Shown one piece after another: positions 4,359-60,685 of a stretch of DNA of 64,000 bases (position 1 is its first letter; every line of letters begins with the position of its first letter). Position numbers and translations under genes: made by a program. Source of the DNA: an uncultured Rhodospirillales bacterium (lineage in GTDB: Bacteria; Pseudomonadota; Alphaproteobacteria; Azospirillales; Azospirillaceae); contig CAIOBP010000097.1 in assembly GCA_903856295.1 (NCBI GenBank), positions 540-64,539 on the forward strand. The letters run 5' to 3'. Under the pieces are notes generated by a model. It was not told the origin of the DNA and did no database searches. It saw nothing but the letters and a program-made list of their open reading frames with translations.

Positions 4359-4825
4359 ATAACCCCCGTGTCTGCATGGCGCTGGCGATGGCCGGAGACC
4401 CTGCACCGCCTCGCCGTACGCGATTCATAGATATGCTAATACCACAAAAAGCAATGAATGCGCGTTTTAATTTTGCCCTATCGCCCTCTGCTAGCGTGAA
4501 CCGCGACTAAGCCTATCTTTCGGATATGGCCAAATAATCGATCGGCTATTTCGCCAGCAGACTCAACCCAAGGCAGGGTCAAGCTTATCCCACGCAACAG
4601 CCGGCCCGGCACCAGCCAAGCAGCTATGTTACGCGATGGAGTGGACTTGTGCAACAGGAGTGGTCAATTAGAATTGATATAAACTGGAGGCCGTCGGAGT
4701 CCCCCCGACAATCCGCACCAGTCGACACGCAATAACCGGCCAGAACATCTGCCGGCCGATCCATGGCGCGGCAACGACTTGTCCAGTGCCGCCACAGGAT
4801 TTTCAATGGATTGCCCGAACGCCCG

Positions 4826-5944
4826 CTACGGCTCGATGATCCGTGAGCGCGAAACCTGCTCGGCGCCGCTCGGCAGCCTCGCCGCCGGATCGCGCAGCCA
4901 GGACAATATGTCGCCGATCACCACGCCGCCGCGCCGGTCGCGCAGCAGCATGTGCCAGCCATCCTGGTAAATGGCCAGCCGCTGACGCCCCTTGGGCAGG
5001 CCGGCCAGCAGGCGATTGATGGCGCCGAAGGGCAGCACCTGCTCATGGACGCCATACAGCACCAGCCCCGGCGTGAGATACCGGGGCGCTGCCGCCAGCG
5101 CCTCGCCCATCAACTCAACCAAACCGTTTATGGTGTCGGCTCGAGTCGCCTTGATCACCAGCGGATCGCGGCTCAGCGCCTTCATCATGTCCACATTGTC
5201 CGAGGGCCGGATTTTCAGGGTTTTGGGCGCGGTCATGGCAAGGCCGGGCACCAGGGCGTTGGTCAGCCACAGCGCCGCCCGGGGCACCGCCCCCATGGCC
5301 TCGCGCCCCCAGACCGCCGGCGCCACCAGAATCGCCCCCGCCACGGCGGCCAGCGGCGAACCGGCCGGCGGCGGTGCCGCCAGCGCGCTCATCACCACCG
5401 CCCCGCCCATGGACTCGCCGAGCAGATAAACCGGCACGCCGGGATGACGCGCGCACACCAGCGCGACCACGGTGGTCAGATCGGCGATCATGGTCGCGGC
5501 GCCTGGCCAGACGCCCCGGCGCATGGTGGCGCCGAAGCCGCGCTGGTCGTAGGCGTAGGTGGCCACACCATCGGCGGCAAACAGCGGACCGACTCCGGAA
5601 AAGGCGTTGGAATAGTCGTTGAAGCCGTGCAGGGCGACAATCACCGCCCGCGTCGCCCCCTCGGGGCGCCAGGCCCGCATGGGCAGATAGTAGCTGTCGG
5701 CGGTGATGGCGTAACCGTCAATCAGGGTTGGCGCCAGCCGCGCCGGTCCCATCGGCTGGGTCGCCGAGGCGCAGCCGGCGACCGCCAGCAGGCCGAGCCA
5801 CCAGCCGACGGCCAGCGGCGGCCGGCGACGATGGTGATCATGGCCGGTGGGTCTGGCCGCCTCCGGCGCTCCCCCCCAGACCCGGCGCACCAGACGCCGG
5901 CGTGTCGAGGGGTGATCCGCCGCTTCCTTCCCGGTCTTCGCCAT
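4826..5944 (-). CDS. alpha/beta hydrolase lipoprotein (lysophospholipase / monoacylglycerol lipase-like)
   Basis: Lipobox LLAVAGCAS, HGFNDYS, nucleophile elbow GESMGG. Start uncertain because the first ~100 nt overlap the upstream ABC gene. Confidence 0.75.
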   Translation of the reverse strand: MAKTGKEAADHPSTRRRLVRRVWGGAPEAARPTGHDHHRRRPPLAVGWWLGLLAVAGCASATQPMGPARLAPTLIDGYAITADSYYLPMRAWRPEGATRAVIVALHGFNDYSNAFSGVGPLFAADGVATYAYDQRGFGATMRRGVWPGAATMIADLTTVVALVCARHPGVPVYLLGESMGGAVVMSALAAPPPAGSPLAAVAGAILVAPAVWGREAMGAVPRAALWLTNALVPGLAMTAPKTLKIRPSDNVDMMKALSRDPLVIKATRADTINGLVELMGEALAAAPRYLTPGLVLYGVHEQVLPFGAINRLLAGLPKGRQRLAIYQDGWHMLLRDRRGGVVIGDILSWLRDPAARLPSGAEQVSRSRIIEP

Positions 5945-6959
5945 CGCTGCCTCTGGTCAGGGTGAGGAAGATATCCTCGAGGTCGGCCTCCTCGGTGGTG
6001 AGATCGAGGATGCCCAGGCCGGCCGCCTGCACCGCCGCGAGAATGGTGTCGATTCGCACCCGACTCGGACGGTAGCGTACAACCAGCCGGCGGCCGATTT
6101 CCAGCTTAACCGCCTCCTCGACCGCCAGCGCCGCCAGCGCCGCCGGAACCTCGGTCAAATCCCGGTCGACGACGATCGCCAGCTCCTTGCTGTCGAGCTG
6201 CCCGAGCAGCGACCGGGTCGACTCGCAGGCCACCACCTGCCCGTGATTGATGATCGCGATGGTGTCGCAGAGCTGCTCGGCCTCCTCCAGATAGTGGGTC
6301 GTGAGCAGAACCGTGGTGCCCCGGCGGTTCAGCTCGCGAACATGGTCCCAGAGCTGGCGGCGCAGTTCGACGTCGACTCCGGCGGTCGGCTCGTCGAGCA
6401 CCAGCACCGGCGGCGCGTGAACCATCGCCTTGGCCACCATCAGCCGCCGCCGCATGCCGCCCGAGAGGGTGCGGGCGTAGGCGTTGGCGTGGCTGCTCAG
6501 CCCGACCGCCTCGAGCAATTCGGCGGTGCGGCGCCGGCCGGCGGGCACGCCATAGAAGCCGGCCTGGAGGTCCAGCAGCTCGCGCGGGGTGAAAAAGGGG
6601 TCGATGTTCAGTTCCTGGGGCACGACGCCGATCGAGGAACGGGCGTGGCGAGTCTGACGGTCGATGTCGAACCCCCAGATCGCCGCCTCGCCCGCGGTCT
6701 TGTTGACCAGCCCGGCCAGGATGTTGATCAGGGTCGATTTGCCGGCGCCGTTGGGGCCGAGCAAACCGAACAGCGAACCGCGCGGAATCGCGAGATCGAT
6801 CGCCTTCAACGCCTCGCGCGACGGCGACTGGCCCGACGCCGCGTAGACCTTGGTCAGGCCGCGCACCGCAACGGCATGGACGGGCGGAACCAGTGTGGAC
6901 ACGGCGACTCCTCCGGCAACACGGGCAATGGTGTAAAACAATTGATCGCCCCGCGCCAT
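5838..6959 (-). CDS. ABC transporter ATP-binding protein (no adjacent permease)
   Basis: Walker A GPNGAGKST, signature LSGGMRRR, Walker B VLVLDEPTAGVD. Gly/Ser-rich C-terminal tail overlaps the hydrolase start. Confidence 0.8.
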   Translation of the reverse strand: MARGDQLFYTIARVAGGVAVSTLVPPVHAVAVRGLTKVYAASGQSPSREALKAIDLAIPRGSLFGLLGPNGAGKSTLINILAGLVNKTAGEAAIWGFDIDRQTRHARSSIGVVPQELNIDPFFTPRELLDLQAGFYGVPAGRRRTAELLEAVGLSSHANAYARTLSGGMRRRLMVAKAMVHAPPVLVLDEPTAGVDVELRRQLWDHVRELNRRGTTVLLTTHYLEEAEQLCDTIAIINHGQVVACESTRSLLGQLDSKELAIVVDRDLTEVPAALAALAVEEAVKLEIGRRLVVRYRPSRVRIDTILAAVQAAGLGILDLTTEEADLEDIFLTLTRGSDGEDREGSGGSPLDTPASGAPGLGGSAGGGQTHRP

Positions 6960-7026
6960 TCGGTATCATCTCGCACGCCCGCCGGTCAAACCGGCGCGAC
7001 GCCGACCTCAGCAACGGAGCCATGCG

Positions 7027-7203
7027 ATGCAGCAGACCGAGACCCTAACCGTCGATAAGGCAAGCGTCACCTGCGACGGCGGCGGCGGACCGCTCGGCCA
7101 CCCCAGGGTCACGCTCTCGCTCGCCGACGGGCGCAACACCTGCCCCTATTGCAGCCGGAGCTTCGTGCTGCGCGCCGGCGCCAAGACCGGTCACGGCCAC
7201 TAA
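7027..7203 (+). CDS. zinc-finger (zf-CHCC / NDUFS6-like) small protein, 58 aa
   Basis: Not in ORF track (under 60 aa). My translation: MQQTETLTVDKASVTCDGGGGPLGHPRVTLSLADGRNTCPYCSRSFVLRAGAKTGHGH. The C..GHP...CPYC pattern is typical of this family. Confidence 0.6.
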   Translation: MQQTETLTVDKASVTCDGGGGPLGHPRVTLSLADGRNTCPYCSRSFVLRAGAKTGHGH

Positions 7204-7240
7204 CGCCCCCCCTTTTTTCTCTCCGACCATTGGATACCGA

Positions 7241-8227
7241 ATGTCGACCTTGATTACCGGCGCAGCGGGCTTCATCGGCTCCCATGTCGCTCATCGTTTG
7301 CTGGCGCGCGGCGATACCGTCGTGGGCATCGACAATCTCAACAGCTATTACGATGTCCGGCTGAAGGAGGCGCGACTCGCGCGCCTGCTCGAGCATCCGA
7401 ATTTCTCCTTCCACAAGCTCGACATTTCGGACCGCGAGGGCATCAACGGCACCCTGGCCAAGGTCGGCAAGGACATCGACGGCGTCGTCCACCTCGCGGC
7501 CCAGGCCGGGGTGCGCCACTCCATCGAGCATCCTTTCGATTACATCAGCGCCAATATCGTCGGACATCTGGTGATGCTGGAATGGTGCCGCCACCAGCCC
7601 GGCCTGAAGCACATGGTTTACGCCAGCTCCAGCTCGGTCTATGGCGGCAACACCACGCTGCCGTTCTCGGTCGAGGACCGGGTCGACCACCCGATCTCGC
7701 TCTACGCCGCGACCAAGAAGGCCGACGAGCTGATGAGCCACACCTACGCCCATCTCTACCGGATTCCCCTCACCGGCATGCGCTTCTTCACGGTCTACGG
7801 GCCATGGGGACGGCCCGACATGGCGCTGTTCAAGTTCTGCAAGTCGATCCTCGAGGGCCAGCCGATCACCATCTACAACAATGGCGAGATGTGGCGGGAC
7901 TTCACCTATGTCGACGATATCGTCACCGGCGTCGTCGCCGCCCTCGACCGCCCGCCCGCGCCCCAGGGGCCGACCGGGGCGCCGCACACCGTGTTCAACA
8001 TCGGCAACCACCGCTCGGAGCCGCTGATGAAGCTGGTCGGGCTGCTGGAAACCGCGCTGGGCAAGGAAGCGATCAAGATCTACGACGGCATGCAGCCCGG
8101 CGACGTGCAGCAGACCTACGCCGACATCGAGGCCACCCGCGATCTGCTCGGCTACGAACCCACCACCCCGATCGACATCGGCGTGCCGAAGTTCGTCGAG
8201 TGGTACCGGGGGCATTACGGGGTGTGA
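7241..8227 (+). CDS. NAD-dependent epimerase/dehydratase (UDP-glucuronate 4-epimerase-like)
   Basis: N-terminal Rossmann motif TGAAGFIGSH, catalytic YAATKKADE, SDR-extended layout, 328 aa. Confidence 0.85.
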   Translation: MSTLITGAAGFIGSHVAHRLLARGDTVVGIDNLNSYYDVRLKEARLARLLEHPNFSFHKLDISDREGINGTLAKVGKDIDGVVHLAAQAGVRHSIEHPFDYISANIVGHLVMLEWCRHQPGLKHMVYASSSSVYGGNTTLPFSVEDRVDHPISLYAATKKADELMSHTYAHLYRIPLTGMRFFTVYGPWGRPDMALFKFCKSILEGQPITIYNNGEMWRDFTYVDDIVTGVVAALDRPPAPQGPTGAPHTVFNIGNHRSEPLMKLVGLLETALGKEAIKIYDGMQPGDVQQTYADIEATRDLLGYEPTTPIDIGVPKFVEWYRGHYGV

Positions 8228-8280
8228 ACCGGCGGGCAGCCGATTCGAACGAGGGCGCTCTGGATGAGAGGAAAACCGCC

Positions 8281-8631
8281 ATGCTGCGAGGTCTGTGTCT
8301 GAGCCTGATCATCCTGACCGCCGGGGCCGTCCGGGCGCAGGAGAGCCACCAGTTCCTGCACAACGCCAATCCATCCAGTCCGCTGTTCGAGTGCAACCAG
8401 AAGACCATCGGCCAGACCGCCTGTCAGGCCGCGCACCGCTGCAAATGCACCTACAACGCCTTCGGCAGCGCCATGCAGGGGCTGCCACCCGGCTATCGCT
8501 GGGATTGCGGGTTGGAGCAGGGCACCTGCACCATCGACATTCCCGCCACCACCAGCGGCAATTACGGCAATTCGCAGGCCCCGTCGTCGGTGCCGACGCC
8601 CCAGGTGGTCGTGCCGTATCAACTCAAATAG
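8281..8631 (+). CDS. small secreted Cys-rich hypothetical protein
   Basis: In-frame ATG within ORF 7582..8631. Signal peptide MLRGLCLSLIILTAGAVRAQE, then 6 Cys in the mature part. No family recognised. Confidence 0.5.
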   Translation: MLRGLCLSLIILTAGAVRAQESHQFLHNANPSSPLFECNQKTIGQTACQAAHRCKCTYNAFGSAMQGLPPGYRWDCGLEQGTCTIDIPATTSGNYGNSQAPSSVPTPQVVVPYQLK

Positions 8632-8665
8632 GGCTGAAACCGGCTCAAAACGCGGCGGCCGGCGG

Positions 8666-9997
8666 TCAGCGGCCCTGGGCATCGTCCTGGCAGGCCTTGA
8701 CCGACAGCCGCCGCGCCGCCGGCAGCAGCAGGGCGGCGTAGCCGGCGATCCAGGCCAGCGCCAGGGTGGCGGTGGCGCCGAGCATGCCGTAGCTCTGGCA
8801 CATCAGGACATTGAGCGGCAGCAGCAGCACGCCCTGCACCAGGGTGATGCGGAAATTATACCAGTAGAGTTCCAGCGCCAGCACGATCGGCCGCACCCAG
8901 AACACCATGGTCACGAAGCCGCTGGCCACCAGCAGCAACTGGAACGGCAGCACGCTGGGCTCGAAGGCGGCGCCGAACACCAGCACCAGCACCGGCCGGG
9001 CGAGCAGAATGCCGACCAGCGTGCCGGCCGCGACCAGCGGCAGCCAGGTGCGGCACAGCACCAGCACCCGGCGGCGAACCTCGGCGAGATCGCGCCGGAC
9101 CACCAGCTCGCTGAAATCCTGGTAGATCACCTGGGACAGCATCTCGCCGACCCGCATCACGGTGGCGGCCAAGCTCTTGGCGAGGCGATACCAGCCGACC
9201 TCCTCGGCCGAGCGGAAGAAGCCGAGCACCAGGGTGTCGGCCTCCTTGATCGCCGAGGAGCAGATGCTCCACAGGAAGGTCGCGCCCATGAAGCCCCAGA
9301 AGCCCGAAAGCTCGCGCCGCCGCCGGAAAACCCGTGAGCCCGCCAGCCCGCCGAGACGGACGCCATAACCCTCGGCCATGGCGCCGAACAGATAGCCGCC
9401 GGTCAGGATCGCCTGGAGCGCCCCGGTGATGGCCATCAGCCAGCCGGCGCTGGCCAAGCCGAGCTGTCCCGCCGCCAGCAGCACCCCCAGCCCGCCGACC
9501 CGCATCAGCGGAAAGACGGTGTTGAGCGCCGCGATGGCGCGGTAGCGTCCGAGGTCCCGGGCGACGCTGAACCAGACCTGATCGAACACCGCGCACACCT
9601 GCATGGTACCGATCAGCAGATAGAGCGGAATCGCGGCGGTGCCGCCGGGCAGATCGCCGGCCAGCCAGGGCACGCTGGCGGCGATCACCACCAACGCCAG
9701 CACCCGGGTTACGATCTCGATGGCCAGGGCCGAGCCGAGCAGCAATTCCATCAGGTCCTGGGCGTTGCGCTCGCGGAACTCCACGAGATAGCGCGTCACC
9801 GGCTCCGAGGTGCGGAAGGTGCACAGCGAGTAGGCGACCAGCACATAGGCCTGAACGCCGCTCCAGATGCCGAAATCCGCCGGCCCCAGCGTCCGGGCCA
9901 GAATCAGGGTCTGGAGCAGGGCAAGCGCCATCGCCGCGGCGCTGCCGCCGAAGAGATAGCTGCCATTGGTGAACAGGCGGCGCAGCGAGGGCTTCAC
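8666..9997 (-). CDS. polysaccharide biosynthesis / oligosaccharide flippase-like membrane protein (MOP/Wzx-like)
   Basis: About 12 predicted TM segments and a typical N-terminus SLRRLFTNGSYLFGGSAAAMALALLQTLILARTLGPADFG. GTG 9997 chosen as start; the upstream part of the ORF is Arg/Pro-rich. Confidence 0.65.
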   Translation of the reverse strand: MKPSLRRLFTNGSYLFGGSAAAMALALLQTLILARTLGPADFGIWSGVQAYVLVAYSLCTFRTSEPVTRYLVEFRERNAQDLMELLLGSALAIEIVTRVLALVVIAASVPWLAGDLPGGTAAIPLYLLIGTMQVCAVFDQVWFSVARDLGRYRAIAALNTVFPLMRVGGLGVLLAAGQLGLASAGWLMAITGALQAILTGGYLFGAMAEGYGVRLGGLAGSRVFRRRRELSGFWGFMGATFLWSICSSAIKEADTLVLGFFRSAEEVGWYRLAKSLAATVMRVGEMLSQVIYQDFSELVVRRDLAEVRRRVLVLCRTWLPLVAAGTLVGILLARPVLVLVFGAAFEPSVLPFQLLLVASGFVTMVFWVRPIVLALELYWYNFRITLVQGVLLLPLNVLMCQSYGMLGATATLALAWIAGYAALLLPAARRLSVKACQDDAQGR

Positions 9998-22521: not shown

Positions 22522-22656
22522 CTAGCCGCCCGACATCCGAATGACGGTGATCGCGAACATGAGAGCGGCCAGCCCGAGCAGGACAAGCGCGACGGCCCGG
22601 TTCTTGGAGGCCAGCCGCCGCTGATCATCCGGCTGAAGAGTGGAGTCGCCTGCCAC
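22522..22656 (-). CDS. possible 44-aa single-TM protein in the coxF position after ctaB
   Basis: Not in ORF track. GTG start 17 nt after the ctaB stop with GAGG upstream. My translation: (V/M)AGDSTLQPDDQRRLASKNRAVALVLLGLAALMFAITVIRMSGG. Confidence 0.35.
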   Translation of the reverse strand: MAGDSTLQPDDQRRLASKNRAVALVLLGLAALMFAITVIRMSGG

Positions 22657-22672
22657 GGTTTTGTGCCTCGGG

Positions 22673-23566
22673 TCAGTGTGTGCCGACGCGATCGGCGATC
22701 AGCGTCAGGAATAGTGCGAACAGATACAGCAGGGAAAAGCGGAACATATGCCGGGCAGCGCGGTCGCTGTCGTCGAACCAGACCCGAACCGCGGCAACCA
22801 GGAACCACGCCCCCAGCCCGAGGGCGACGGCAAGGTAAACCAGCCCGCTCAGACCGATGCTGTAGGGCACGACCGACAGGGGCAGCAGCAGCACCGTGTA
22901 GATGATCATCTGGCGCTTGGTTTCCCGCGCGCCCGCGACCACGGGCAGCATCGGCACCCCGGCCCGCTGATAGTCGTCATTGCAAAACAGCGCCAGCGCC
23001 CAGAAGTGCGGCGGCGTCCACATGAAAATCAGCATGAACAGCACGACTGAGGCCAGCGAGACATCGCCAGTCACCGCCGCCCAGCCGATCATCGGCGGAA
23101 ACGCCCCCGAGGCGCCGCCGATGACGATGTTGTAGGGCGTGCGACGCTTCAGCCAGATGGTATAGACGAAGACATAAAACGCCGAGGCCAGAAACAGCAG
23201 CCCGGCCGCGACGAAGTTGGTGGCAAGCCCCATGACCATGACCGCGCCCAGGGTCAGGATGACGCCAAAACCGAGGGCGTCGCCGGGCGCCATCTTGCCC
23301 GCCGGCAGCGGCCGCGTCCGCGTCCGCCGCATCACCTCGTCGATATCGCGGTCATACCACATATTGATGGCGCCGGCGGCGCCGGCGGCGATCGCGATGC
23401 ACAGGACGGCGGTCGCGGCCAGGACCGGATGCAGGTGTCCGGGGGCGAGGCACAGCCCGGAAAAGCCGGAGAACACCACCAGCAGCATGACGCGCGGCTT
23501 CAGCAGCGCGACAAAATCTCCGATATCGGTCCCAATGCTCATCTTCTGAATGGTGGTATCGGTCAT
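22673..23566 (-). CDS. ctaB: heme O synthase (protoheme IX farnesyltransferase)
   Basis: UbiA-fold protein with ALLKPRVMLLVVFS, NMWYDRDIDEVMRRTRTRPLPAG, PPHFWALA. Confidence 0.9.
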   Translation of the reverse strand: MTDTTIQKMSIGTDIGDFVALLKPRVMLLVVFSGFSGLCLAPGHLHPVLAATAVLCIAIAAGAAGAINMWYDRDIDEVMRRTRTRPLPAGKMAPGDALGFGVILTLGAVMVMGLATNFVAAGLLFLASAFYVFVYTIWLKRRTPYNIVIGGASGAFPPMIGWAAVTGDVSLASVVLFMLIFMWTPPHFWALALFCNDDYQRAGVPMLPVVAGARETKRQMIIYTVLLLPLSVVPYSIGLSGLVYLAVALGLGAWFLVAAVRVWFDDSDRAARHMFRFSLLYLFALFLTLIADRVGTH

Positions 23567-23586
23567 GCCGGCCTCATCTGGGCTCT

Positions 23587-23620
23587 AAAGGTGACAAATC
23601 GAAAAAGGTGACAAATCGAA
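23587..23620. repeat. perfect 17-bp tandem direct repeat in the coxI-like/ctaB intergenic gap
   Basis: aaaggtgacaaatcgaa occurs twice back to back (23587-23603, 23604-23620). Confidence 0.9.
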
Positions 23621-23651
23621 CAACGCGCGCTCGTGTCCCGCAGTTTTGTCG

Positions 23652-25205
23652 TCATGAGCGAGCATCCGCCCGCTCGCCCCAATAATCATCCCCGACTCTT
23701 GAGCCCTTTATCAGAGTGTAGAGTGCGATGCCACAGAAAATCATCCCGGAGGCGAATCCAGTATAAGCGCCAATCGAGGAAATGAAGTTCAAACCGGCAA
23801 AGCTGTCGGGATAATCGGGCGTATGGCGGGGCATGCCGTCCAGCCCCAAGACGTATTGAGGGATCATGGTCAGGTTGACACCGACGAACATCGTCCAGAA
23901 TTGAATCTTGCCCCAGAGTTCGGGATATTGCCGACCGGACATCGCGCCGATCCAATAATACCAGCCGCCGAGCGCCGCGAAAACCGCGCCAAGGCTCAAA
24001 ACCAAATGGAAATGGGCGACGACGAAATAGGTGGCGTGAACCGAGACGTCCGGGGAGCCGCTCCTCATGATCGCGCCGGCCGCGCCGCCGAAAATAAAGA
24101 TCACCATGAACCCGATGGCGTAGAGCATCGGGGTTTTGAGGGCCGGCGCGCGGCGCCACATGGTCGCGATCCAAGACAAGAGGATGATGGCGGTGGGAAT
24201 CGAGATGATCAGGATCGCGATGCCGAAGTAGGAATCGGTCTTGAAGCTCATGCCGGACGTATACATCTGCTGCGCCCAGACCACGAAGCCGATCAGGCCG
24301 ATCGCGCACATGGCGTAGACCATGCCCAGGTACCCGACAACCGGCCTTCTGGCAAAGGTCGCGATAATATGACTGACGATGCCGAAAGACGGCACGATCA
24401 TGATGTAGGCCTCGGGGTGACCGAAGAACCAGAGCACGCGCTGAAACAGCAGCGGATCGCCGCCACTCCCGGACTGGAAGAGCGCGCCGCCGGGGGTGCC
24501 GCCCATGACCAGCAGAGTGATGGCGCCGGCCAGCACCGGAACGGTCAGCACCAGCAAAAACGCGGTCACCAGCACCGCCCAAACGAACAGGGGCAGCTTA
24601 TGAAAGGTCATGCCCGGCGCGCGCATGTTGAAAATGGTGGCGATGAAGTTGATCGCCCCGGTCACCAGCGAGGTGCCGGCGAGCAGCAGCGCCAAAATCG
24701 CCAGATCGAGCGAAAGACCGGGCGCGCGCGCCGTGCCGGGCAGCGGCAGCCCCTCCGTCCGCCCCTCGCCGGTGTTCATGCCGACCAAGGTCGAGCCGAG
24801 CAGCAGCGCCAGCGAGGGAATCATCAGCCAGAAGCCGAGCATGTTCAGCCGCGGAAAGGCCATGCCGGAGGCGCCGATCATGGTCGGCACGAGCCAGTTG
24901 CCGAAGCCGCCGATCAGGGCCGGCATGACCATGAAGAACACCATGATCAGACCATGGGCGGTCATTACCAGGTTCCAAGTCTGCCCATCGGGAAACAGCT
25001 GCAGACCGGGCGCCTGCAATTCAAAGCGCATCAGCACGGAAAACAGCGCGCCGACGATGCCGGAGACGACGGACAGGCACAAATACAGTGTCCCGATATC
25101 CGTGTGATGGGTCGAGCACAGCCGGCGACGGAACGACCCTGAGCTGCGACTGTGATGATCGCGGCCAGACGGCGATGCCTCAGCTCCGGGAAATTGATCG
25201 CTCAT
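23652..25205 (-). CDS. A-family heme-copper oxidase subunit I homolog lacking the helix-VII CuB histidines
   Basis: 517 aa with CoxI motifs STHHTDIGTLY, TAHGLIMVFFMVMPALIGGFGNW, WFFGHPEAYIMIVPSFGIVSHIIATF, VVAHFHLVLS. WAQQMYT replaces WAHHMYT (CAG CAG at 24267..24272). Confidence 0.9.
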   Translation of the reverse strand: MSDQFPGAEASPSGRDHHSRSSGSFRRRLCSTHHTDIGTLYLCLSVVSGIVGALFSVLMRFELQAPGLQLFPDGQTWNLVMTAHGLIMVFFMVMPALIGGFGNWLVPTMIGASGMAFPRLNMLGFWLMIPSLALLLGSTLVGMNTGEGRTEGLPLPGTARAPGLSLDLAILALLLAGTSLVTGAINFIATIFNMRAPGMTFHKLPLFVWAVLVTAFLLVLTVPVLAGAITLLVMGGTPGGALFQSGSGGDPLLFQRVLWFFGHPEAYIMIVPSFGIVSHIIATFARRPVVGYLGMVYAMCAIGLIGFVVWAQQMYTSGMSFKTDSYFGIAILIISIPTAIILLSWIATMWRRAPALKTPMLYAIGFMVIFIFGGAAGAIMRSGSPDVSVHATYFVVAHFHLVLSLGAVFAALGGWYYWIGAMSGRQYPELWGKIQFWTMFVGVNLTMIPQYVLGLDGMPRHTPDYPDSFAGLNFISSIGAYTGFASGMIFCGIALYTLIKGSRVGDDYWGERADARS

Positions 25206-25250
25206 AAGCCGTCCTTGATTGCGAACCGGTATCCAGACTTCAACGATGGA

Positions 25251-25817
25251 CTATTTCTTGCCGATGACGTCGGTGATCTGCCGCCGCACCGCCGGATTGT
25301 CCCAATCGGTGCCGCCGAGCAGGCGGGCGACCTCGCGGCCGTCGCGCCCGATCAGCACCGAAGTCGGCAGCCCGCGGACGCCGAGAACACTGTTCGTGGC
25401 CCCGGTGGGGTCGAGATAGGGCGCCAGCGCTTTCACCCTCTGTTTTTCCAGGAAGGGCAGCACCACCGCCGCGCCGCCGCGATCCTCGGCCAGGGCCAGC
25501 ACCTGAAAGCCCGGGCCGCCCAACTCGGATTGCAACCGGTCGAGGGAGGGCATTTCCTTGACGCACGGCGCGCACCACGTCGCCCACAGGTTCAGCAACA
25601 ACACCTTGCCGGCGAAATCGGCGAGCCGTAGCGGCGCGCCCGCGCCGTCGGTGAACGCGAAATCGGCGACCGGGCGCTCCGCCGCCTGGAAGTGTCCAGC
25701 CGGTGCCGATTCCGGTCCGCCGGGCGGGTGCAGCATCAGCGCGGCGGACAGCGCCGCCATGCCGAAGCCGGTGACCGCGCCGGCCAGGGCCAGTTTGCGG
25801 ATCGTCTCCGGGCTCAT
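25251..25817 (-). CDS. TlpA/ResA-like periplasmic thiol:disulfide oxidoreductase
   Basis: TM anchor plus thioredoxin fold with WATWCAPC. Three in-frame ATGs (25877, 25847, 25817) are created by the 30-bp repeat; the innermost is listed. Confidence 0.8.
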   Translation of the reverse strand: MSPETIRKLALAGAVTGFGMAALSAALMLHPPGGPESAPAGHFQAAERPVADFAFTDGAGAPLRLADFAGKVLLLNLWATWCAPCVKEMPSLDRLQSELGGPGFQVLALAEDRGGAAVVLPFLEKQRVKALAPYLDPTGATNSVLGVRGLPTSVLIGRDGREVARLLGGTDWDNPAVRRQITDVIGKK

Positions 25818-25900
25818 GCCGCCGCCTGCTCGCCGCTCCGGGCTCATGCCGCCGCCTGTTCGCCGCTCCGGGCTCATGCCGCCGCCTGCTCGCCGCGCGA
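25811..25900. repeat. 30-bp tandem repeat x3 spanning the ABC-exporter stop / tlpA start junction
   Basis: ggctcatgccgccgcctgctcgccgctccg, ggctcatgccgccgcctgttcgccgctccg, and ggctcatgccgccgcctgctcgccgcgcga. Confidence 0.9.
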
Positions 25901-27730
25901 ATCGAGCCCCGGATCGAGATTAAACTGCAAGGCCGCCAACCGGGCATAGAGCCCGCCCTGGCGGCTGAGATCGGCGTGGGTGCCGCAGGCCACCACCGCG
26001 CCACCCTCCATCACCACGATGCGGTCGGCATTCATCACGGTGGCGAGGCGGTGGGCGATGATCAGGGTGGTGCGGCCTTTCATCAGTTCGTCCAGCGCCT
26101 CCTGGACCGCGCGCTCGCTTTCGGCGTCGAGGGCGCTGGTCGCCTCGTCGAGCAGCAGCACCGGCGGATTGCGCAGAATCGCGCGGGCGATGGCCACCCG
26201 CTGGCGCTGCCCGCCCGAAAGCTGCACGCCCTTTTCGCCGAGGAAGGTGTCGAAGCCCTGGGGCAGCTTTTCCAGGAACTCCAGGGCGTGGGCGGCCTCG
26301 GCGGCGGCGCGCACCTCGGCGTCGCTGGCCTCGGGCCGGCCGTAGCGGATGTTCTCCCAGGCGTTGCCCGAGAAGATCACCGGCGCCTGGGGCACCAATC
26401 CGAGCCGGCGGCGCACCGCGGCGGGATCGGCGGCCCGGACATCGACGCCATCGAGCAGCACCGCACCCGACTGAACATCGTAGAAGCGCAGCAGCAACTG
26501 GAACACCGTCGACTTGCCGGCGCCGCTCGGCCCGACCAGCGCCACGGTTTCGCCCGCCGCCACCTCGAGGGAGAAGCCGCTCAGCGCCGGATGCTCGGGC
26601 CGGGCGGGGTAATGGAAGCCGACGCTGTCGAAGGTCACCGTGCTGCGCGGCGTCTCGGGCAATGGCTGGGGATTGGCCGGCGCCACGATGTCGGGCTCGG
26701 TGGTCAGCAGCTCGAACAACCGCTCGGTGGCCCCGGCGGCGCGCTGCAAATCGCCGTAAACCTCGGAAATCGAGCCCGAGGAGCCGGCGACCACCGCCGC
26801 GTAGATCACGAAGGCCGACAGCTGCCCGGCGGTCAGGGTGCCGGCGATGACGTCGTGGCCGCCGATCCACAGCACGACGCCGATGGCGCCGAACACCAGC
26901 ACGATCACCGTGGTCGCGGTCACCGAGCGGATGCGCACCCGGCTCATGGCGGTGTTCAGGGCGTCTTCGACCCGGTCGACAAAGCCGCGATGGTCGATGC
27001 TCTCGTGATTGAAGGCCTGGACGATGCGAATCGCCGACAGCGTTTCCTCCAGGTGCGAGCCGACGTCGCCGACCCGCTCCTGGCTGGCCCGCGACAGCCG
27101 CCGCTCCATGCGCCCGAGCATCACGATCGGCGCCACCACCAGCGGCAGAGCCAGAAACACCAGCCCGGTCAGCTTGGCGCTGGTGATCAGCAGCATGGTC
27201 AGGCCGCCGATCAGCATCAGGCCGTTGCGCAGGGCGATGGAGACCGAGGAGCCGATCACCACCTGCAACAGCGTGGTGTCGGTGGTCAGCACCGAGAGAA
27301 TGTCGCCGACCCGCTTGTGTTCGAACCAGGCCGGGCTGAGCCGCAGCACGTGGGCATGGGCGGCCCGGCGCAAATCCGCCACCACCCGCTCGCCGACCCA
27401 GCTGACCAGAAAGAAGCGGCCAAAGGCGGCGGCGCCGAGCAGCACCGTCACCACCAGCATCACCAGTAAGACCTGATCGAGCATGCCGGGATCGCCGGCC
27501 CCGAAGCCCTTGTCGATCATCACCCGCAAGCCCTGGCCGAGACCGAGGGTGGTCGCCGCCGAGACGGTCAACGCCAGCATCGCTCCGGCGATCTGCCAGC
27601 GATAGGGCGCGAGATAGGGCAGCAGGCGCCGCAACGGCTTGAGGTCGCGCCGCCGGACCGCGTCGGCGGCGGCGGCCGCCTCGGCCGGCTTCAGGGTGCT
27701 TTCGACATAGTTCGATTTGCTGTGAAACAT
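25874..27730 (-). CDS. fused TMD-NBD ABC exporter (MsbA/ABCB-like)
   Basis: 618 aa with six N-terminal TM segments, Walker A GPSGAGKST, signature LSGGQRQR, Walker B LLLDEATSALD. Confidence 0.85.
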   Translation of the reverse strand: MFHSKSNYVESTLKPAEAAAAADAVRRRDLKPLRRLLPYLAPYRWQIAGAMLALTVSAATTLGLGQGLRVMIDKGFGAGDPGMLDQVLLVMLVVTVLLGAAAFGRFFLVSWVGERVVADLRRAAHAHVLRLSPAWFEHKRVGDILSVLTTDTTLLQVVIGSSVSIALRNGLMLIGGLTMLLITSAKLTGLVFLALPLVVAPIVMLGRMERRLSRASQERVGDVGSHLEETLSAIRIVQAFNHESIDHRGFVDRVEDALNTAMSRVRIRSVTATTVIVLVFGAIGVVLWIGGHDVIAGTLTAGQLSAFVIYAAVVAGSSGSISEVYGDLQRAAGATERLFELLTTEPDIVAPANPQPLPETPRSTVTFDSVGFHYPARPEHPALSGFSLEVAAGETVALVGPSGAGKSTVFQLLLRFYDVQSGAVLLDGVDVRAADPAAVRRRLGLVPQAPVIFSGNAWENIRYGRPEASDAEVRAAAEAAHALEFLEKLPQGFDTFLGEKGVQLSGGQRQRVAIARAILRNPPVLLLDEATSALDAESERAVQEALDELMKGRTTLIIAHRLATVMNADRIVVMEGGAVVACGTHADLSRQGGLYARLAALQFNLDPGLDSRGEQAAA

Positions 27731-27836
27731 CTCAATCCGGGCCTTTGCAGTGCTTAGAGCGGGTCACGCAGGGGGAGTATCCACTCTAAAACGGTAATCC
27801 AGAGCATGGTGCGCCGCCATATGATCGCATTGGGCT

Positions 27837-28439
27837 CTAGCGTTTCAAGACCTGCCGAATGCCCTCGGCCATCTGCTCCGGGGTGGTCTCGTGGCCGAAC
27901 AGCTTGAGCACGGTGCCGCGATCACCGGTCAGAAAGGTGAAGGCCGAGTGATCCATGGTGTACCCGTCGGGGGTGGAGCCCGGAACCTTGCGGTAATACA
28001 CCCGGAAGCTCTTGGCGGCGGCGGCGACCTGCTCGGGCGTGCCGGTCAGGCCGATCAGGCGCGGGCTGAACTGGGCGACATAGGGGGCCAGCCCCTCCTT
28101 GGAATCGCGCTCGGGATCGATGGTGACGAACAGCTGCTGCACCCGGCCGGCATCCTGGCCCAGCAGCTCGAGGGCGCTGGCGCCGGCCTGGAGATTGGTC
28201 GGGCAGACGTCGGGGCAGAAGCGGTAACCGAAGCTGATCAGCAACAGCTTGCCCGGCCAGCTGTTTTCGGTCACCGCGCGGCCGTCGTGGGCGGTCAGCG
28301 CGAACGGGCCGCCGAGTTCGAATTGGGGCGCCGAGCTTTGCCCGGAGTCCCGTTGCAATCCCTGCTTGAGCCACAGCGCCCCGGCGCTGAGCGCCACCAC
28401 GGCGATCAGGAACAAGCCATTGCGGCGCAGCCAGCTCAT
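27837..28439 (-). CDS. SCO1/SenC copper chaperone
   Basis: Start at MSWLRRNGLFLIAVVAL (ATG 28439). CxxxC motif FGYRFCPDVCP and the distal His in YTMDHSAFTFL. Confidence 0.85.
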   Translation of the reverse strand: MSWLRRNGLFLIAVVALSAGALWLKQGLQRDSGQSSAPQFELGGPFALTAHDGRAVTENSWPGKLLLISFGYRFCPDVCPTNLQAGASALELLGQDAGRVQQLFVTIDPERDSKEGLAPYVAQFSPRLIGLTGTPEQVAAAAKSFRVYYRKVPGSTPDGYTMDHSAFTFLTGDRGTVLKLFGHETTPEQMAEGIRQVLKR

Positions 28440-28465
28440 GGACGGTCCTCCGGAGATGAACAGAC

Positions 28466-29620
28466 CTACCGCCGTCGCAGATCGTGCAACGCCAACAGGA
28501 TCAACGACAGCAGCACGAAAGCGCCCGCCTGATGAGTCACCGCCGTCACCACCGGAACAGACAGCACAAGTGTGGTAATTCCAAGGCTGATCTGAACCAC
28601 CACCCAGACGCCGAGCACGAAGCCGAGGCGGCGGGTCGCCGGCGCCAGCGTCTCGAGCGAGGCGACGCGCCAGCCGTAATACAGCGTTACCAGACCGGTG
28701 GTGATGGCCAGCCAGCGGTGGCAGAACTGTACCGCCGGGGCATTCTCGAAGAGGTTGAGCCATCTCGGCTCGAGCGCCCACGCCTCGCTGGCGATGACCT
28801 CGCCGTTCATCAAGGGGAAGGTGTTGTAGATCAGCCCGGCATGCAGCCCCGCGACCATCGCGCCCCAGATCAGCGTCGTCACCGCCAGCAGCAGCGCCAG
28901 CCGGAGATGCATGCGCAGGGACCAGCCCTTGTTGCGGGCGACCAGCGCCGAGCGCGGCTCGGGGCGCAGCAGGGTCAGCGCCTGCCACAGGATGAAGCTG
29001 AAGATCAGCATCGCCATGGTTAGATGGGTGGCGAGCCGGTAATGGCTGACCGATGGCCGGTCGACCAGCCCGCTAGCCACCATCAGCCAGCCGACCACGC
29101 CCTGAAGGGCGCCGAGCAGGAAGATGTTGACGAGATTGGTCATCAGCCCGGGACGGATTTTCTTGGTCGCCCAGAAATAGAGGAAGGGCAGCAGAAATAC
29201 GAAGCCGATCAGGTGCGCGAACAGGCGATGGAACCACTCCCACCAGAAGATTTCCTTGAAGGCGTCAAGGGTCATGCCATGATTGACTTGTAGATACTCG
29301 GGCGTGAGCTGGTAAAGACCGAACACCCGCTGCCACTCGAGTTCGTTCAAGGGCGGCAGCACGCCGACCAGCGGCTTCCACTCGACCATCGAGAGGCCGG
29401 AATGGGTCAGCCGGGTGATGCCGCCGATGATCACGATGGAAAACACCATGGCCGCGCAGGCCAACAACCAGACACCGATCGCCTTGTCGGCGCCGGGGCC
29501 GGGGGGCGGCGCAGCCGGTTTGCTCGCGGCCGGCTTGCTCGCAGGCGGGGGGGCGGGCGCGGCGGTGGACTCGGGAGCCGGCACGGACTCGGAATCGGTG
29601 GTCATGGAGCGTTCCGTCAC
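28466..29620 (-). CDS. ctaA: heme A synthase (COX15/CtaA)
   Basis: IIGGITRLTHSGLSMVEWKP, EFKEIFWWEWFHR-like segment, 8 TM, second His-containing half. Confidence 0.85.
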   Translation of the reverse strand: MTERSMTTDSESVPAPESTAAPAPPPASKPAASKPAAPPPGPGADKAIGVWLLACAAMVFSIVIIGGITRLTHSGLSMVEWKPLVGVLPPLNELEWQRVFGLYQLTPEYLQVNHGMTLDAFKEIFWWEWFHRLFAHLIGFVFLLPFLYFWATKKIRPGLMTNLVNIFLLGALQGVVGWLMVASGLVDRPSVSHYRLATHLTMAMLIFSFILWQALTLLRPEPRSALVARNKGWSLRMHLRLALLLAVTTLIWGAMVAGLHAGLIYNTFPLMNGEVIASEAWALEPRWLNLFENAPAVQFCHRWLAITTGLVTLYYGWRVASLETLAPATRRLGFVLGVWVVVQISLGITTLVLSVPVVTAVTHQAGAFVLLSLILLALHDLRRR

Positions 29621-29639
29621 TCTCGTTGGGGGTGGGTGA

Positions 29640-30131
29640 TCACGGCGCGGCGATCACGGTCACCCAGTGGCGCATCTTGTTGTGTTCGAGACCGCAATAT
29701 TCGCTGCACACCATCGAGACCTTGCCGGGTTCGGCGGTGGTCACCGGCATGATCGCCGCCCGGCCGGGGACCAGCAGCGCCTCTTTGCCGCCGATGACCA
29801 CGCCGTGCAGACTATCCTCGCTGGCCACGTGGAAACGATAGCTCTGATGGGGCTGAAGTTCCAGCACCGGCAGGAAGCGCCAGCGGCCGGCGGCGACATA
29901 GACATCGCCCGGCGGCGGCCGCACCACCGGCACCCCCTCCTCGTCGCCGACCTTGTAGCGGGCGGTTTGCGCCGCGAGTTTGGCCTCGAACTCGGCGGCG
30001 GCGATGGCGTAGGTCTGAATCTCGGTCGCCCGCGCCAGCCCGCGCCACGCCGGCTGGGCCAGAAACAGCAGCGCCAGCAGCGCGCCGACGCCGAGCAGCA
30101 GCTTGCGTTCGCCGGGAGAATGCTCACACAT
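29640..30131 (-). CDS. small single-TM CuA (cupredoxin) oxidase subunit II-like protein
   Basis: 163 aa with one N-terminal TM. Complete CuA ligand set: H (SLHGV), then C-S-E-Y-C-G-L-E-H-N-K-M. Confidence 0.75.
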   Translation of the reverse strand: MCEHSPGERKLLLGVGALLALLFLAQPAWRGLARATEIQTYAIAAAEFEAKLAAQTARYKVGDEEGVPVVRPPPGDVYVAAGRWRFLPVLELQPHQSYRFHVASEDSLHGVVIGGKEALLVPGRAAIMPVTTAEPGKVSMVCSEYCGLEHNKMRHWVTVIAAP

Positions 30132-31491
30132 GGTCGGTCTCCGTGCGCGCCAGCAGACGGTTGATCATCAGCCAGATGAACAGGACGCCGCCCAGCACCG
30201 CCAGCGCGCCGCCCAGGCCGTAAACGCCCATCGCGACCTTCTTGAGCGTGCTGTCGAGCCCCTGAGCGGCGGCGCCCATGGTCTTGCGCGGCACCCCGGC
30301 GGCGCCGGCCACGAACATGCCGATCGAGAACACCATCTGGCCCCAGCCATAGGAGTGGAACAGCCCGGTCACCAGCCGGCGCGATTTGACCGCCCGCCCG
30401 AGCGCCGGCAGCACCACCGCGATGAACAGCCCCATGAAGGCGAGGTTCACGCCGCCGATCGCCGAATGATAGTGCGAGGGCGTGCGGGCGTCCGAGGCGC
30501 CGAGAAAGAAGCCCATGGCGCCGCCGACCAGAAACACCGCCAGCGAAATCCCAAGCGCCAGTTCGGCCGCGCCCCAGCTGAGTCCGGCCCGCCGCCGCCA
30601 GAGCAGGGCGACCAGCCCGGCCCCGACCACCACCGGCGGCACGGTCAGCCCGTACCACAGCAGATCGGTGAAGGCAAGGCGGTGCTGGAGGCTCAGAATG
30701 TCGTACATCCCGTAAAAGGCGAAGCCCGGCAAAACGAACACCACCATCGAGCCCAGCACCAGTTTGAACAGCGACGGCGGCACCGGCTCCTCGCCGAACG
30801 CGGTCTGGGCCAGGATCACCCAGGCGGTGAGCATCAGCGCCGTGTTGACGAATTGCAGGACATGGCCGCCGCCCCAGAACAGGCGCTCGTTGAAGGTCTG
30901 GAGATCGAGCCCGGCCGGCAGCACCGCCCAGGCGATGGCGATCAGCAGCAGCGCGATCAGGTACAGCACCCCCGAGACCGCGACGCCGAAGCCGACGCTG
31001 CCCCGGATCGCCGCCGGATTGGCCAGCAGCCGCACCACCGGCAGCGCCACGCCGCCGCCGACCAGCGCCAGCCCGAGATAGTAGAGCGGATGCACCACGA
31101 TCGGCACGTAATTGTTGAGGCAGGGCTCGCCCTCATTGAGAAAGGCGGGAATGGCCAGCAGCACCGTGCCCAGCGCTCCGGCCCAAACCCCGGCCGGCCC
31201 CAGCGCCGCGAGCCGGACGGCCCCGGCGCCGGCCAGCGGCAGCACCGCCAGCACGCCCAGCACCGCCAGGAACCAGACCACGAACGACAGAATGACGTGG
31301 GTCACCAGGGCGGTGTAGAAGAAGCTCTGCCACGACCAGGGCAGCAGCACCTGAGTCGCGGGCACCCGCGACAGCACCAGCAGCAAAGCCAGCGCCCCGG
31401 CCACCGCCAGCGACCCCGCCGCGATCCACGACCAGCCCGCGACCTCGCGGCGCAAGGCGGCCGGCAGCGTCATTCCCGGCGCTTCAGTCAT
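30124..31491 (-). CDS. divergent heme-copper oxidase superfamily subunit I-like protein (455 aa)
   Basis: About 12 TM. By-eye motif placement: helix II VTHVILSF, helix VI LFWGGGHVLQF, helix X PSHYHSAIGG. No HH pair anywhere. 8-nt overlap with the subunit II gene. Confidence 0.55.
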   Translation of the reverse strand: MTEAPGMTLPAALRREVAGWSWIAAGSLAVAGALALLLVLSRVPATQVLLPWSWQSFFYTALVTHVILSFVVWFLAVLGVLAVLPLAGAGAVRLAALGPAGVWAGALGTVLLAIPAFLNEGEPCLNNYVPIVVHPLYYLGLALVGGGVALPVVRLLANPAAIRGSVGFGVAVSGVLYLIALLLIAIAWAVLPAGLDLQTFNERLFWGGGHVLQFVNTALMLTAWVILAQTAFGEEPVPPSLFKLVLGSMVVFVLPGFAFYGMYDILSLQHRLAFTDLLWYGLTVPPVVVGAGLVALLWRRRAGLSWGAAELALGISLAVFLVGGAMGFFLGASDARTPSHYHSAIGGVNLAFMGLFIAVVLPALGRAVKSRRLVTGLFHSYGWGQMVFSIGMFVAGAAGVPRKTMGAAAQGLDSTLKKVAMGVYGLGGALAVLGGVLFIWLMINRLLARTETDHV

Positions 31492-31627: not shown

Positions 31628-31945
31628 CTACCGCCCCGACTTGGTCCGCTCATGCTCCATGTAAGCGCGGAGCACGGCGTTGATCCTGGTCTGGTAAGGC
31701 TCGCCGGAACTGCGGAACCACTCCAGCACGTCGCGGTCGATGCGGATGCTGATCGGCTCCTTGCCCGGCGGCATGACGACGCGGGCCGTCTTGAACCAGT
31801 TGTCGTCCAAGATCGGCGCGGCGTCGGGATCGTCCCGGATCGCCGCCTCGATGTCTTCGTCAGTGAGGGCGTCCACTCGGGCCCAGTCCGTTTGTCCCCG
31901 GCCGGCGGTCTCGAGCGTAACTCTCGTGATAGCCTCTTTGCTCAT
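31628..31945 (-). CDS. brnA: BrnA-family antitoxin
   Basis: 105 aa: DWARVDALTDEDIEAAIRDDPDAAPI ... ISIRIDRDVLEWFRSSGEPYQTRINAVLRAYM (RHH-type C-terminus). Confidence 0.75.
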   Translation of the reverse strand: MSKEAITRVTLETAGRGQTDWARVDALTDEDIEAAIRDDPDAAPILDDNWFKTARVVMPPGKEPISIRIDRDVLEWFRSSGEPYQTRINAVLRAYMEHERTKSGR

Positions 31946-32180
31946 GCTTGCGTGCCTTTCGTGCCGAGATCAGCCGCCGAGTCTCACCGCGCCATGTGTA
32001 AACGACGGTTATTATACTGCCATCGACGATTCCTTGGGCGATGAACCGCATTTCGCCAAAATCACGAACGGCGGGCTGTTCCACAACGTGACGCGCCCAA
32101 ATCTGAACAGCATCCCGGAAATCGATCCCGTGTTTCTCAAGATTGCTCAGTCGCTTGCCCTCATCCCACTCAAACTCCAC
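31860..32180 (-). CDS. brnT: BrnT-family (DUF497) toxin
   Basis: Tail of ORF 31860..34139. GTG 32180 is preceded by AGGAGG. VEFEWDEGKRLSNLEKHGIDFRDA ... VVYTWRGETRRLISARKARKHEQRGY. About 25 aa tail overlaps brnA. Confidence 0.7.
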   Translation of the reverse strand: MEFEWDEGKRLSNLEKHGIDFRDAVQIWARHVVEQPAVRDFGEMRFIAQGIVDGSIITVVYTWRGETRRLISARKARKHEQRGYHESYARDRRPGTNGLGPSGRPH

Positions 32181-58897: not shown

Positions 58898-59031
58898 CAC
58901 CCCGGGCGGACCGCTGAGGTATTTTTCACTCAGGCCAATTGTGGGGGTTGCCAAGCCGCCCAGACTTGGCTAGTGTCCGCCCCGTGCTTCCGACGGGCTC
59001 CCGTCTCGCCGGACAGCCTTTGTATGGCAAT

Positions 59032-59108
59032 GCGCCCGTAGCTCAACTGGATAGAGCATCTGACTACGGATCAGAAGGCTGGGAGTTCGAATCTCTCCGG
59101 GCGCGCCA
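59032..59108 (+). tRNA. tRNA-Arg (anticodon ACG)
   Basis: Hand-folded cloverleaf. Acceptor GCGCCCG/CGGGCGC. D arm GCTC-AACTGGATA-GAGC. Anticodon arm TCTGA-CTACGGA-TCAGA. T arm GGGAG-TTCGAAT-CTCTC. Encoded GCCA end. Confidence 0.9.
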
Positions 59109-60596: not shown

Positions 60597-60685
60597 TGCC
60601 AGCATTACGGCTGTTGGCTCAATCATTCGTGATCATAGTTGCACATTAAGGTTTTCCAAAAACTCAAGCGCATGAGGGAAAGTAA

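Follow-up and report, generated by a model that had tools for sequence, protein, structure and literature searches.

Three active-site histidines are taken as a near-universal signature of the heme-copper oxidoreductase superfamily. Here we analysed a window of 64,000 nucleotides from contig CAIOBP010000097.1 of an uncultured Rhodospirillales bacterium, and within it the run of nine genes at 22522-31491, which encodes a subunit-I-like protein of this superfamily (HCOx). Five B-related families without the active-site Tyr, named as nitric oxide reductases (NOR), have been described: eNOR, bNOR, sNOR, nNOR and gNOR (Murali et al. 2024, PMC11214002). The active-site histidines are conserved in every family but gNOR, which was called the first with even one of them replaced; in gNOR one His is changed to Asp and subunit II lacks the CuA ligands (PMC11214002). 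The 'cytochrome a1-like' hemoprotein of M. magnetotacticum was assigned to eNOR in the same study. The norSY genes of sNOR were formerly named coxB2A2, hence the order subunit II then subunit I (bioRxiv 10.1101/765727). The sole wording of this kind for Magnetospirilli in Degli Esposti et al. 2019 is 'degenerate B family oxidase', and no description of a family of the superfamily without the His pair was found in the full-text literature of the searchable library.

When HCOx was compared with these systems, it appeared to represent a branch of the superfamily that is large and has apparently not been described before. We hold with moderate confidence that the nine genes are a composite, made of a conserved HCOx redox-enzyme unit and of the remnant of a dead A1-type cox operon which still supplies heme O synthase. 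The genes, and the toxin-antitoxin pair at their upstream boundary, are as follows.

31628-32159, minus strand: BrnT/BrnA toxin-antitoxin pair, upstream boundary of the cluster (Pfam BrnT_toxin 73 bits, BrnA_antitoxin 63 bits)
30124-31491, minus strand: HCOx, subunit-I-like protein of 455 amino acids (aa) (Pfam COX1, PF00115, 36.8 bits; cut-off 34.8)
29640-30131, minus strand: SubII', CuA subunit-II-like protein of 163 aa with one transmembrane helix (motif H...CSEYCGLEHNKM; Pfam COX2 21.3 bits; cut-off 22)
28466-29605, minus strand: ctaA, heme A synthase (Pfam COX15-CtaA, PF02628, 348 bits)
27837-28439, minus strand: SCO1/SenC copper chaperone with CPDVCP (Pfam SCO1-SenC, PF02630, 152 bits)
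25874-27730, minus strand: MsbA-related ABC exporter (NCBIfam TIGR02204, 849 bits; cut-off 780)
25251-25877, minus strand: tlpA, TlpA-like periplasmic thioredoxin with WCAPC, gene-caller start at 25847 (Pfam Redoxin)
23652-25205, minus strand: coxA', A1-type CoxI of 517 aa with WAQQMY in place of WAHHMY (COX1 420 bits)
22673-23566, minus strand: ctaB, heme O synthase (TIGR01473, 338 bits; cut-off 210)
22522-22656, minus strand: small open reading frame (ORF) of 44 aa with a single transmembrane helix and a GTG start, coxF-like by position and by homology to an ORF of the Azospirillum locus L086

No NCBIfam family matched HCOx, and the borderline COX1 match was the only one in Pfam. Relatives were found in the hundreds, under generic names only, in Paramagnetospirillum, Telmatospirillum, Terasakiella and many metagenome-assembled genomes (MAGs). 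An exhaustive search with an HCOx profile gave 630 clusters at 50 % identity (E ≤ 1e-30), and when one genome per species was scanned, 154 species genomes encoded a relative. The hosts include microaerophilic and denitrifying Rhodospirillales, Nitrospinota and Deltaproteobacteria.

The B-family ba3 oxidase of Thermus thermophilus was the sole solved structure matched by a profile of 24 HCOx members. In the alignment (HCOx residues counted from Met1), H65, H340 and H342 correspond to the ba3 heme ligands H72, H384 and H386, with H65 of helix II and H342 of the helix-X HxH as ligands of the low-spin heme and H340 of the same HxH as the ligand of the high-spin heme. H210, within FWGGGH, aligns to the CuB ligand H233, and R402-K403 to the propionate-binding RR. 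H282/H283 and Y237 of ba3 have no HCOx counterpart in the profile alignment, and the column of the cross-linked Y237 holds F, V or I. The AlphaFold (AF2) model of HCOx had a predicted local distance difference test score (pLDDT) of 88.5 and a predicted template modelling score (pTM) of 0.90, and ba3 was its best Foldseek match at a template modelling score of about 0.77 (range 0.72-0.79).

When 137 full-length representatives were compared, H65, Y128, P130, W206, G209, H210, Q213, H340, Y341, H342, R402 and K403 were 99-100 % conserved and E202 was conserved in 91 %. Opposite the His-His (HH) pair, the residues are L/I/F/A/V in one column and Y/A/F/T in the other, and His was seen in 6 of the 137 (hhalign). 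An hhalign comparison with three-His eNOR-like proteins gave a probability of 99.96 at 25 % identity and set their HH opposite F259/Y260. HCOx thus has the fold and the heme ligands of the superfamily and, of the three histidines of the CuB/FeB site, H210 only. With its ligand residues near-invariant across the 137 representatives, HCOx is a family under constraint whose active site is altered, and not a set of decaying copies. Both subunit-I homologues of the run lack the helix-VII His-His pair of CuB. The claim of the earlier note on this DNA that the CuB ligands are lost in both proteins holds for this pair, but the helix-VI CuB histidine is kept in each.

SubII' is a cupredoxin subunit and carries the complete CuA motif H...CxExCxxxHxxM. 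The neighbourhoods of HCOx were counted in 81 loci (the best 80 loci from a scan for which two HCOx motifs served as seeds, plus metagenome contig L004), with ORFs of at least 90 aa included. A subunit-II-like gene follows HCOx in 35 of the 81, and the CuA motif is complete in 34 of these 35. Two proteins are fusions of HCOx and COX2 (P0059 and P0248). A candidate for the protein that donates electrons to the CuA subunit is a class I c-type cytochrome (CGMCH), whose gene was seen between ctaA and SCO1 in an Azospirillaceae relative (L007, 13389-13799).

HCOx resembles ba3 in its 12-13-helix subunit I fold, both sets of heme histidines, the Trp before the helix-VI His, the propionate R-R/K pair and the small CuA subunit II with one transmembrane helix. 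It differs in that it has neither the H282/H283 pair nor Tyr237, and so no CuB site, and it is about 100 residues shorter, 21-23 % identical and encoded in the order I then II. With eNOR (the enzymes of Rhodothermus marinus and Magnetospirillum) it shares kinship to the B family, the lack of the Tyr, a CuA subunit, the link to ctaB and ctaA, and a Gln three residues past the helix-VI His (GHSSQQ in eNOR, GHVLQF in HCOx), and in Magnetospirillum and some Deltaproteobacteria an eNOR-like gene shares the cluster of HCOx. However, the eNOR-like proteins keep HH, are about 100 aa longer and are 25-28 % identical to HCOx.

The likeness to sNOR, which the earlier note had drawn from the norSY-senC arrangement, consists of B-family relation, a CuA subunit and an adjacent SCO/SenC gene. 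It does not survive on two counts: sNOR, known here by its published description, has three histidines whereas HCOx lacks two of them, and the sNOR order is norS (II)-norY (I)-senC whereas here I precedes II and ctaA lies between SubII' and SCO1. In the case of gNOR, the only described family with an active-site His replaced, HCOx differs as it lacks two histidines, shows no conserved Asp at those columns and has an intact CuA site in nearly all of its partner subunits. Membership of HCOx in sNOR, gNOR or eNOR, as compared by their published descriptions, was rejected since two histidines are gone while CuA is kept.

Of the 81 loci, 42 hold ctaB, 25 ctaA and 23 SCO genes, and a DUF420/CtaM gene lies directly upstream of HCOx in 32-38. 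TlpA-like genes were found in 8-14 loci and also head the Magnetospirillum-type clusters. The ABC exporter is near HCOx in three loci, all of them closest relatives; as the link is limited to these three genomes, it is probably local synteny and not part of the conserved module. In addition to HCOx, 34 of the 81 loci encode a complete subunit I of the oxidase type, which keeps the HH pair in every one: 15 are of the A1 type (GHPEVY), 7 of the A2 type (YSHPAVY) and 11-12 are three-His proteins without the Tyr (GH[SP]SQQ...HH). Cox11 occurs in 15 loci and an A1-type CoxI is present in all 15, which ties Cox11 to A1-type oxidases only. The absence of Cox11 is thus in line with HCOx, as had been proposed from the window.

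The gene order in Paramagnetospirillum is tlpA-ctaA-subII-subI (three His)-ctaB-sco-(cytochrome b/2x4Fe-4S/FlpD fusion)-orf167-HCOx-SubII'. The three-His neighbour of HCOx in Magnetospirillum is most likely eNOR, judging from the assignment of the M. magnetotacticum protein (PMC11214002) and from the subII-subI-ctaB order. The cytochrome b/Fe-S/FlpD protein consists of a bc1-type cytochrome b N-domain, two 4Fe-4S motifs and an FlpD/MvhD-like domain (L022, 7838-9912; L058, 1994-4135; L061, 1612-3726; L083, 7069-9102), and it adjoins HCOx in 17 of the 81 loci, in Alphaproteobacteria, Nitrospinota and Deltaproteobacteria. The 167-aa domain (orf167) is a separate gene in Magnetospirillum and is fused C-terminally in Nitrospinota and Deltaproteobacteria. 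In the Nitrospinota loci the cytochrome b/Fe-S/FlpD gene comes directly after HCOx and a CuA subunit was not found there. HCOx itself occurs in natural fusions to CtaB (P0284), Cytochrome_B (P0298) and TPR domains (P0349 and P0380). A gene for a Crp/FNR regulator lies just upstream of HCOx in three deltaproteobacterial loci (L061, 3742-4482; L064, 5110-5847; L083, 9273-9962), and more distant Crp-like genes were seen downstream in several Magnetospirillum-related loci.

Because the heme sites, CuA and the second electron-transfer partner are strictly conserved, we read the HCOx side of the run as a redox enzyme of two subunits within the heme-copper oxidase superfamily, with its maturation genes. 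For its electron path, heme type and substrate we infer the following. A periplasmic donor would reduce CuA in SubII', from which the electron would pass to the bis-His low-spin heme (H65/H342) and on to the second heme on H340. The distal pocket of this heme would be formed by H210, the invariant Q213, W206 and usually E202, with no CuB/FeB site. Heme A would be supplied by ctaA, and SCO1 and TlpA would load CuA. In other lineages the cytochrome b/4Fe-4S/FlpD fusion would serve HCOx instead of, or besides, the CuA subunit, and in some HCOx may be under Crp/FNR-type control. The substrate would most likely be a small oxidant handled on a single heme, i.e. NO, peroxide or an O2-derived species. 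Tentatively, HCOx could be a copper-free single-heme catalytic core with a His/Gln/Trp/Glu pocket, fed by the CuA subunit or by the cytochrome b-Fe-S/FlpD protein, for a respiratory or detoxifying reaction, or a transmembrane relay of electrons between cytochromes of the periplasm and Fe-S carriers of the cytoplasm, performed by no characterised member of the superfamily.

Several observations weigh against an enzyme of this kind. A CuA subunit is not encoded next to HCOx in about half of the loci, and many consist of DUF420-HCOx-ctaB without one. HCOx stands beside three unrelated types of complete oxidase (eNOR-like, A1 and A2) in the 34 loci given above, is adjacent to ctaB and DUF420, and is fused to CtaB or to TPR domains in the proteins named above; all of this fits a role in maturation or heme handling equally well. 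In addition, a distal His that ligates the heme iron directly could make HCOx a pure electron carrier, and other oxidases and other ctaB copies may be present elsewhere in the genome, beyond the 64 kb.

The strongest alternative is that HCOx is not a terminal enzyme and that it acts as a scaffold for maturation or heme handling together with CtaB, CtaA and CtaM/DUF420. It would take up, hold or deliver heme O or A to the true oxidases, or feed or drain the electrons of CtaA. Besides the points just listed, ctaB, DUF420/CtaM and ctaA are its commonest neighbours, and a COX1-like protein of Acetobacter has been proposed as a stabiliser of CtaB in the passage of PMC10715153 on this gene. However, 34 of 35 partner subunits have an intact CuA site, the residues of the two heme sites and of the propionate R/K pair do not vary, and a cytochrome b/Fe-S partner is conserved in three phyla. 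Such costly electron-transfer features are not expected in a chaperone, and the operons of true oxidases also routinely hold ctaB, ctaA and SCO genes. We consider the scaffold unlikely. In a variant with H210 as a ligand of the heme iron, HCOx would do no more than relay electrons.

If HCOx is a redox enzyme as we propose, with one of the three histidines left and the hemes and the CuA partner intact, it would extend the active-site repertoire of the superfamily, and the respiratory inventory of microaerophilic or denitrifying bacteria, magnetotactic ones among them, would gain an enzyme. The annotation label 'cbb3-type cytochrome c oxidase subunit I', which is put on HCOx, would inflate the aerobic capacity inferred for its hosts. 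Cultivated hosts (Paramagnetospirillum, Terasakiella, Telmatospirillum and Roseospira) make HCOx directly testable.

The composite nature of the run was seen when close relatives were compared. L003 (88 %) and L004 (83 %) have HCOx-SubII'-ctaA-SCO1-ABC-TlpA followed by unrelated and mutually different genes, and L006 (88 %) has the same six genes on a contig which ends shortly past TlpA. Relatives at 67-71 % identity share HCOx-SubII'-ctaA alone, with or without SCO1. The dedicated heme/CuA module comprises four to six of the nine genes. The earlier note had viewed all nine as a single dedicated module with an altered active site, built around two catalytic subunits. The first block, i.e. HCOx-SubII' and the accessory genes for CuA and heme A, matches that description and is kept in relatives when the neighbourhoods are compared. 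The second block does not: the relatives at 83-88 % have no CoxI-ctaB part, and the supposed second subunit is a singleton, a fast-evolving A1-type remnant of one lineage (see below).

Upstream of HCOx, L006 has acnB-coxC-sco-coxB-coxA-ctaB, with an oxidase operon at 4646-9808 whose CoxA is of the A2 type (HH intact, YSHPAVY), while L004 has acnB-ctaB only. The window carries BrnT/BrnA where the relatives have acnB, the A2-type oxidase operon and/or ctaB, and this position suggests a rearrangement breakpoint. Most simply, the upstream ctaB would have been lost from this genome, alone or together with an A2 oxidase, leaving it to rely on the ctaB of the A1 remnant. In this second unit ctaB would be kept for heme O, the precursor which ctaA converts to heme A, because heme O precedes heme A and the upstream ctaB has been replaced by the toxin-antitoxin pair.

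The ctaB of the window is of the classical alphaproteobacterial type, 65-73 % identical to that of Azospirillum and Skermanella and only 37-38 % identical to the ctaB upstream of HCOx in the relatives. The Azospirillum MAG locus L086 has the operon coxB-coxA-ctaB-(uncalled small ORF)-ctaG-coxC-DUF983-SURF1. Its small ORF (...RNLAVAGVLLALVVLFYVITLVRMGGG) ends 1 nt before ctaG and is 49 % identical over 41 aa to the 44-aa ORF of the window. A 44-aa gene with a weak Pfam YCO2 match was called at the same place in a relative whose ctaB is 85 % identical, and the gene caller skipped the ORF of the window on the identical contig L001. The 44-aa ORF had no Pfam match in a direct scan and no homologues were found in the HCOx loci. 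We identify it as a positional homologue of the ctaB-ctaG small ORF, in agreement with the coxF-like ORF of the earlier note.

Order and orientation of coxA'-ctaB-small ORF are the same as in L086 (ctaB 71 %, small ORF 49 %), whereas coxB, ctaG/Cox11, coxC, DUF983 and SURF1 are missing here and coxA' has lost catalytic residues. Because of the ctaB type, the L086 order and the homology of the small ORF, 22522-25205 is interpreted as the middle of an A1-type cox operon that was truncated on both sides. The absence of Cox11 and subunit III noticed earlier extends to the whole 64 kb, in which tblastn found no homologues of Cox11, CoxIII or DUF420. The remainder of the window holds no further oxidase genes, and its other genes are unrelated.

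The coxA' product scored 539 bits against the CtaD equivalog TIGR02891 (cut-off 670.75). Among 5.8 billion proteins its relatives were identical copies only, followed by ordinary alphaproteobacterial CoxI at about 60 %. It is 58-62 % identical to 118 canonical CoxI, which are 76-100 % identical to each other (median 83 %), and is altered at 86 of the 291 columns in which their conservation reaches 98 % or more. The changes are H312Q, H313Q, K341I, D391A and R461H (MPRR to MPRH) and those at 81 other near-invariant columns. In addition, the GTGWTxYPPL motif and about 30 C-terminal residues are lost; the heme ligands, H262, E264 and Y266 are kept. From the R. sphaeroides and bovine enzymes, we take K341 of PTG(I/V)K to be the K-channel Lys, D391 of HD to belong to the Mg site and R461 to the propionate Arg pair. 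By this assignment coxA' lacks the CuB His pair, the K-channel Lys, the Mg-site Asp and the propionate Arg pair of an A1-type oxidase.

When the Azospirillum MAG was compared with Skermanella, CoxI was 84 % and CtaB 74 % identical, and when the window was compared with both, the values were 60 % for CoxI and 69-71 % for CtaB. Since the CtaB control is not depressed alike, the acceleration is specific to coxA. GC content at third codon positions (GC3) of coxA' is 0.807, the minimum of the cluster (others 0.85-0.91). No other QQ-type CoxI was found with the degenerate pattern V-W-A-Q-Q-M-Y-T in 241 million metagenome records of the Joint Genome Institute (JGI); the only match was a chance occurrence in an unrelated ORF. 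P0122, a CoxI of 663 aa in which about 130 residues are duplicated internally, was rejected as a close QQ relative, as it is an ordinary CoxI; it is probably a misassembled metagenomic gene.

The coxA' frame is open over 517 codons with short indels only. In a crude neutral simulation of point substitutions without indels, 1-6 % of the replicates were free of stops at 15-25 % extra amino acid divergence. On the contigs of the 85 % ctaB relative, the gene upstream of ctaB is open over at least 130 aa and ends 76 nt before it, and the only other copy with DNA across coxA' (L001) is identical. Because of the open frame, the rarity of stop-free simulations and the open gene in the 85 % relative, we conclude that coxA', which cannot be an oxidase after the loss of oxygen-reduction and proton-channel residues, is probably still made. 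As for its role, we infer that it may be a structural partner of CtaB, by analogy with Acetobacter: according to the passage of PMC10715153 that cites Matsutani et al., a deranged COX1-like gene is kept there with ctaB and was proposed to stabilise CtaB.

In both cases, as far as that passage describes the Acetobacter gene, a dead A-type CoxI is kept with heme O synthase after the rest of the operon was lost. The Acetobacter protein is described there as lacking all metal-binding residues, whereas coxA' keeps the heme ligands and one CuB His. The Acetobacter relic and coxA', which is Rhodospirillales-like, belong to different lineages and are likened by pattern, not by homology. With the Acetobacter gene as portrayed in that passage, coxA'-ctaB would be a second, independent case. 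It also warns that a full-length CoxI need not count as an oxidase.

It is quite unlikely that coxA' is a plain pseudogene, untranslated and open by chance, which would persist only for its place between a promoter and the ctaB that is needed. In favour of this reading, numerous residues, catalytic and near-invariant ones, are lost, GC3 is the lowest of the cluster, there are no conserved orthologues, and chance stop codons are scarce in high-GC genomes. However, about 70 % of the near-invariant positions are unchanged, as are all four heme/helix-VI ligands, the indels are short, few simulated frames stay open even without indels, and a gene upstream of ctaB is open in the 85 % relative too.

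Very improbable, finally, is the view, developed from the earlier note, that the nine genes form one co-evolved, sNOR-like module with two working subunits I sharing the CuA subunit: the single strand, the short gaps, the two overlaps, the heme ligands and first CuB His kept and HH lost in both homologues, and SCO1 and TlpA present with Cox11 absent all suit it, but the QQ CoxI-ctaB part is missing in the 83-88 % relatives, the QQ CoxI is closest to ordinary CoxI only, sNOR has three histidines (PMC11214002) and the norSY order II then I, the 80 best genome loci and the 10 cluster representatives that were looked up held no ammonia oxidisers, and Magnetospirillum has a three-His, Tyr-less enzyme beside HCOx at about 27 % identity.

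The layout of the run was checked by ORF calls, translations and Pfam/NCBIfam scans and by reading the sequence, and the nine same-strand genes, overlaps and gaps are as they had been given before. HCOx and SubII' overlap by 8 nt (ATGTGTGA), the ABC exporter and tlpA meet at ATGA, and the gap between SCO1 and the ABC exporter is 106 nt. The cluster is not an assembly artefact, because it recurs on an independent metagenome contig (L001), with a single mismatch over 21 kb. A terminator scan of the cluster gave no convincing intergenic terminator. A promoter scan gave a single weak promoter-like site in the SCO1-ABC gap (27848-27821), and so the two halves may be separate transcripts. When Rfam was run on 21.5-32.5 kb, nothing was found but one sub-threshold small RNA match.

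The ctaA product scored 303 bits against the alphaproteobacterial CtaA equivalog (cut-off 550) and is therefore divergent; its gene adjoins HCOx-SubII' in the closest relatives. The tlpA product has the Redoxin fold and WCAPC and scored 125.6 bits against NCBIfam TlpA (NF047696; cut-off 230). A 30-bp unit is present three times (96 % match) at 25806-25896, across the ABC stop and the tlpA start, so that the junction itself is duplicated. The triplication yields three in-frame ATG starts for tlpA (MSPERRTGGG-MSPERRAGGG-MSPETIRK), of which the gene caller took the third on the identical contig. A perfect 17-bp direct repeat (AAAGGTGACAAATCGAA, twice on the plus strand) was seen at 23587-23620, within the 85 nt that separate coxA' from ctaB, and could be the scar of a duplication or a site to which a regulator binds. 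Towards its right end (58000-64000) the window drops in GC content from about 0.66 to 0.46-0.59, and this part may be foreign or mobile DNA.

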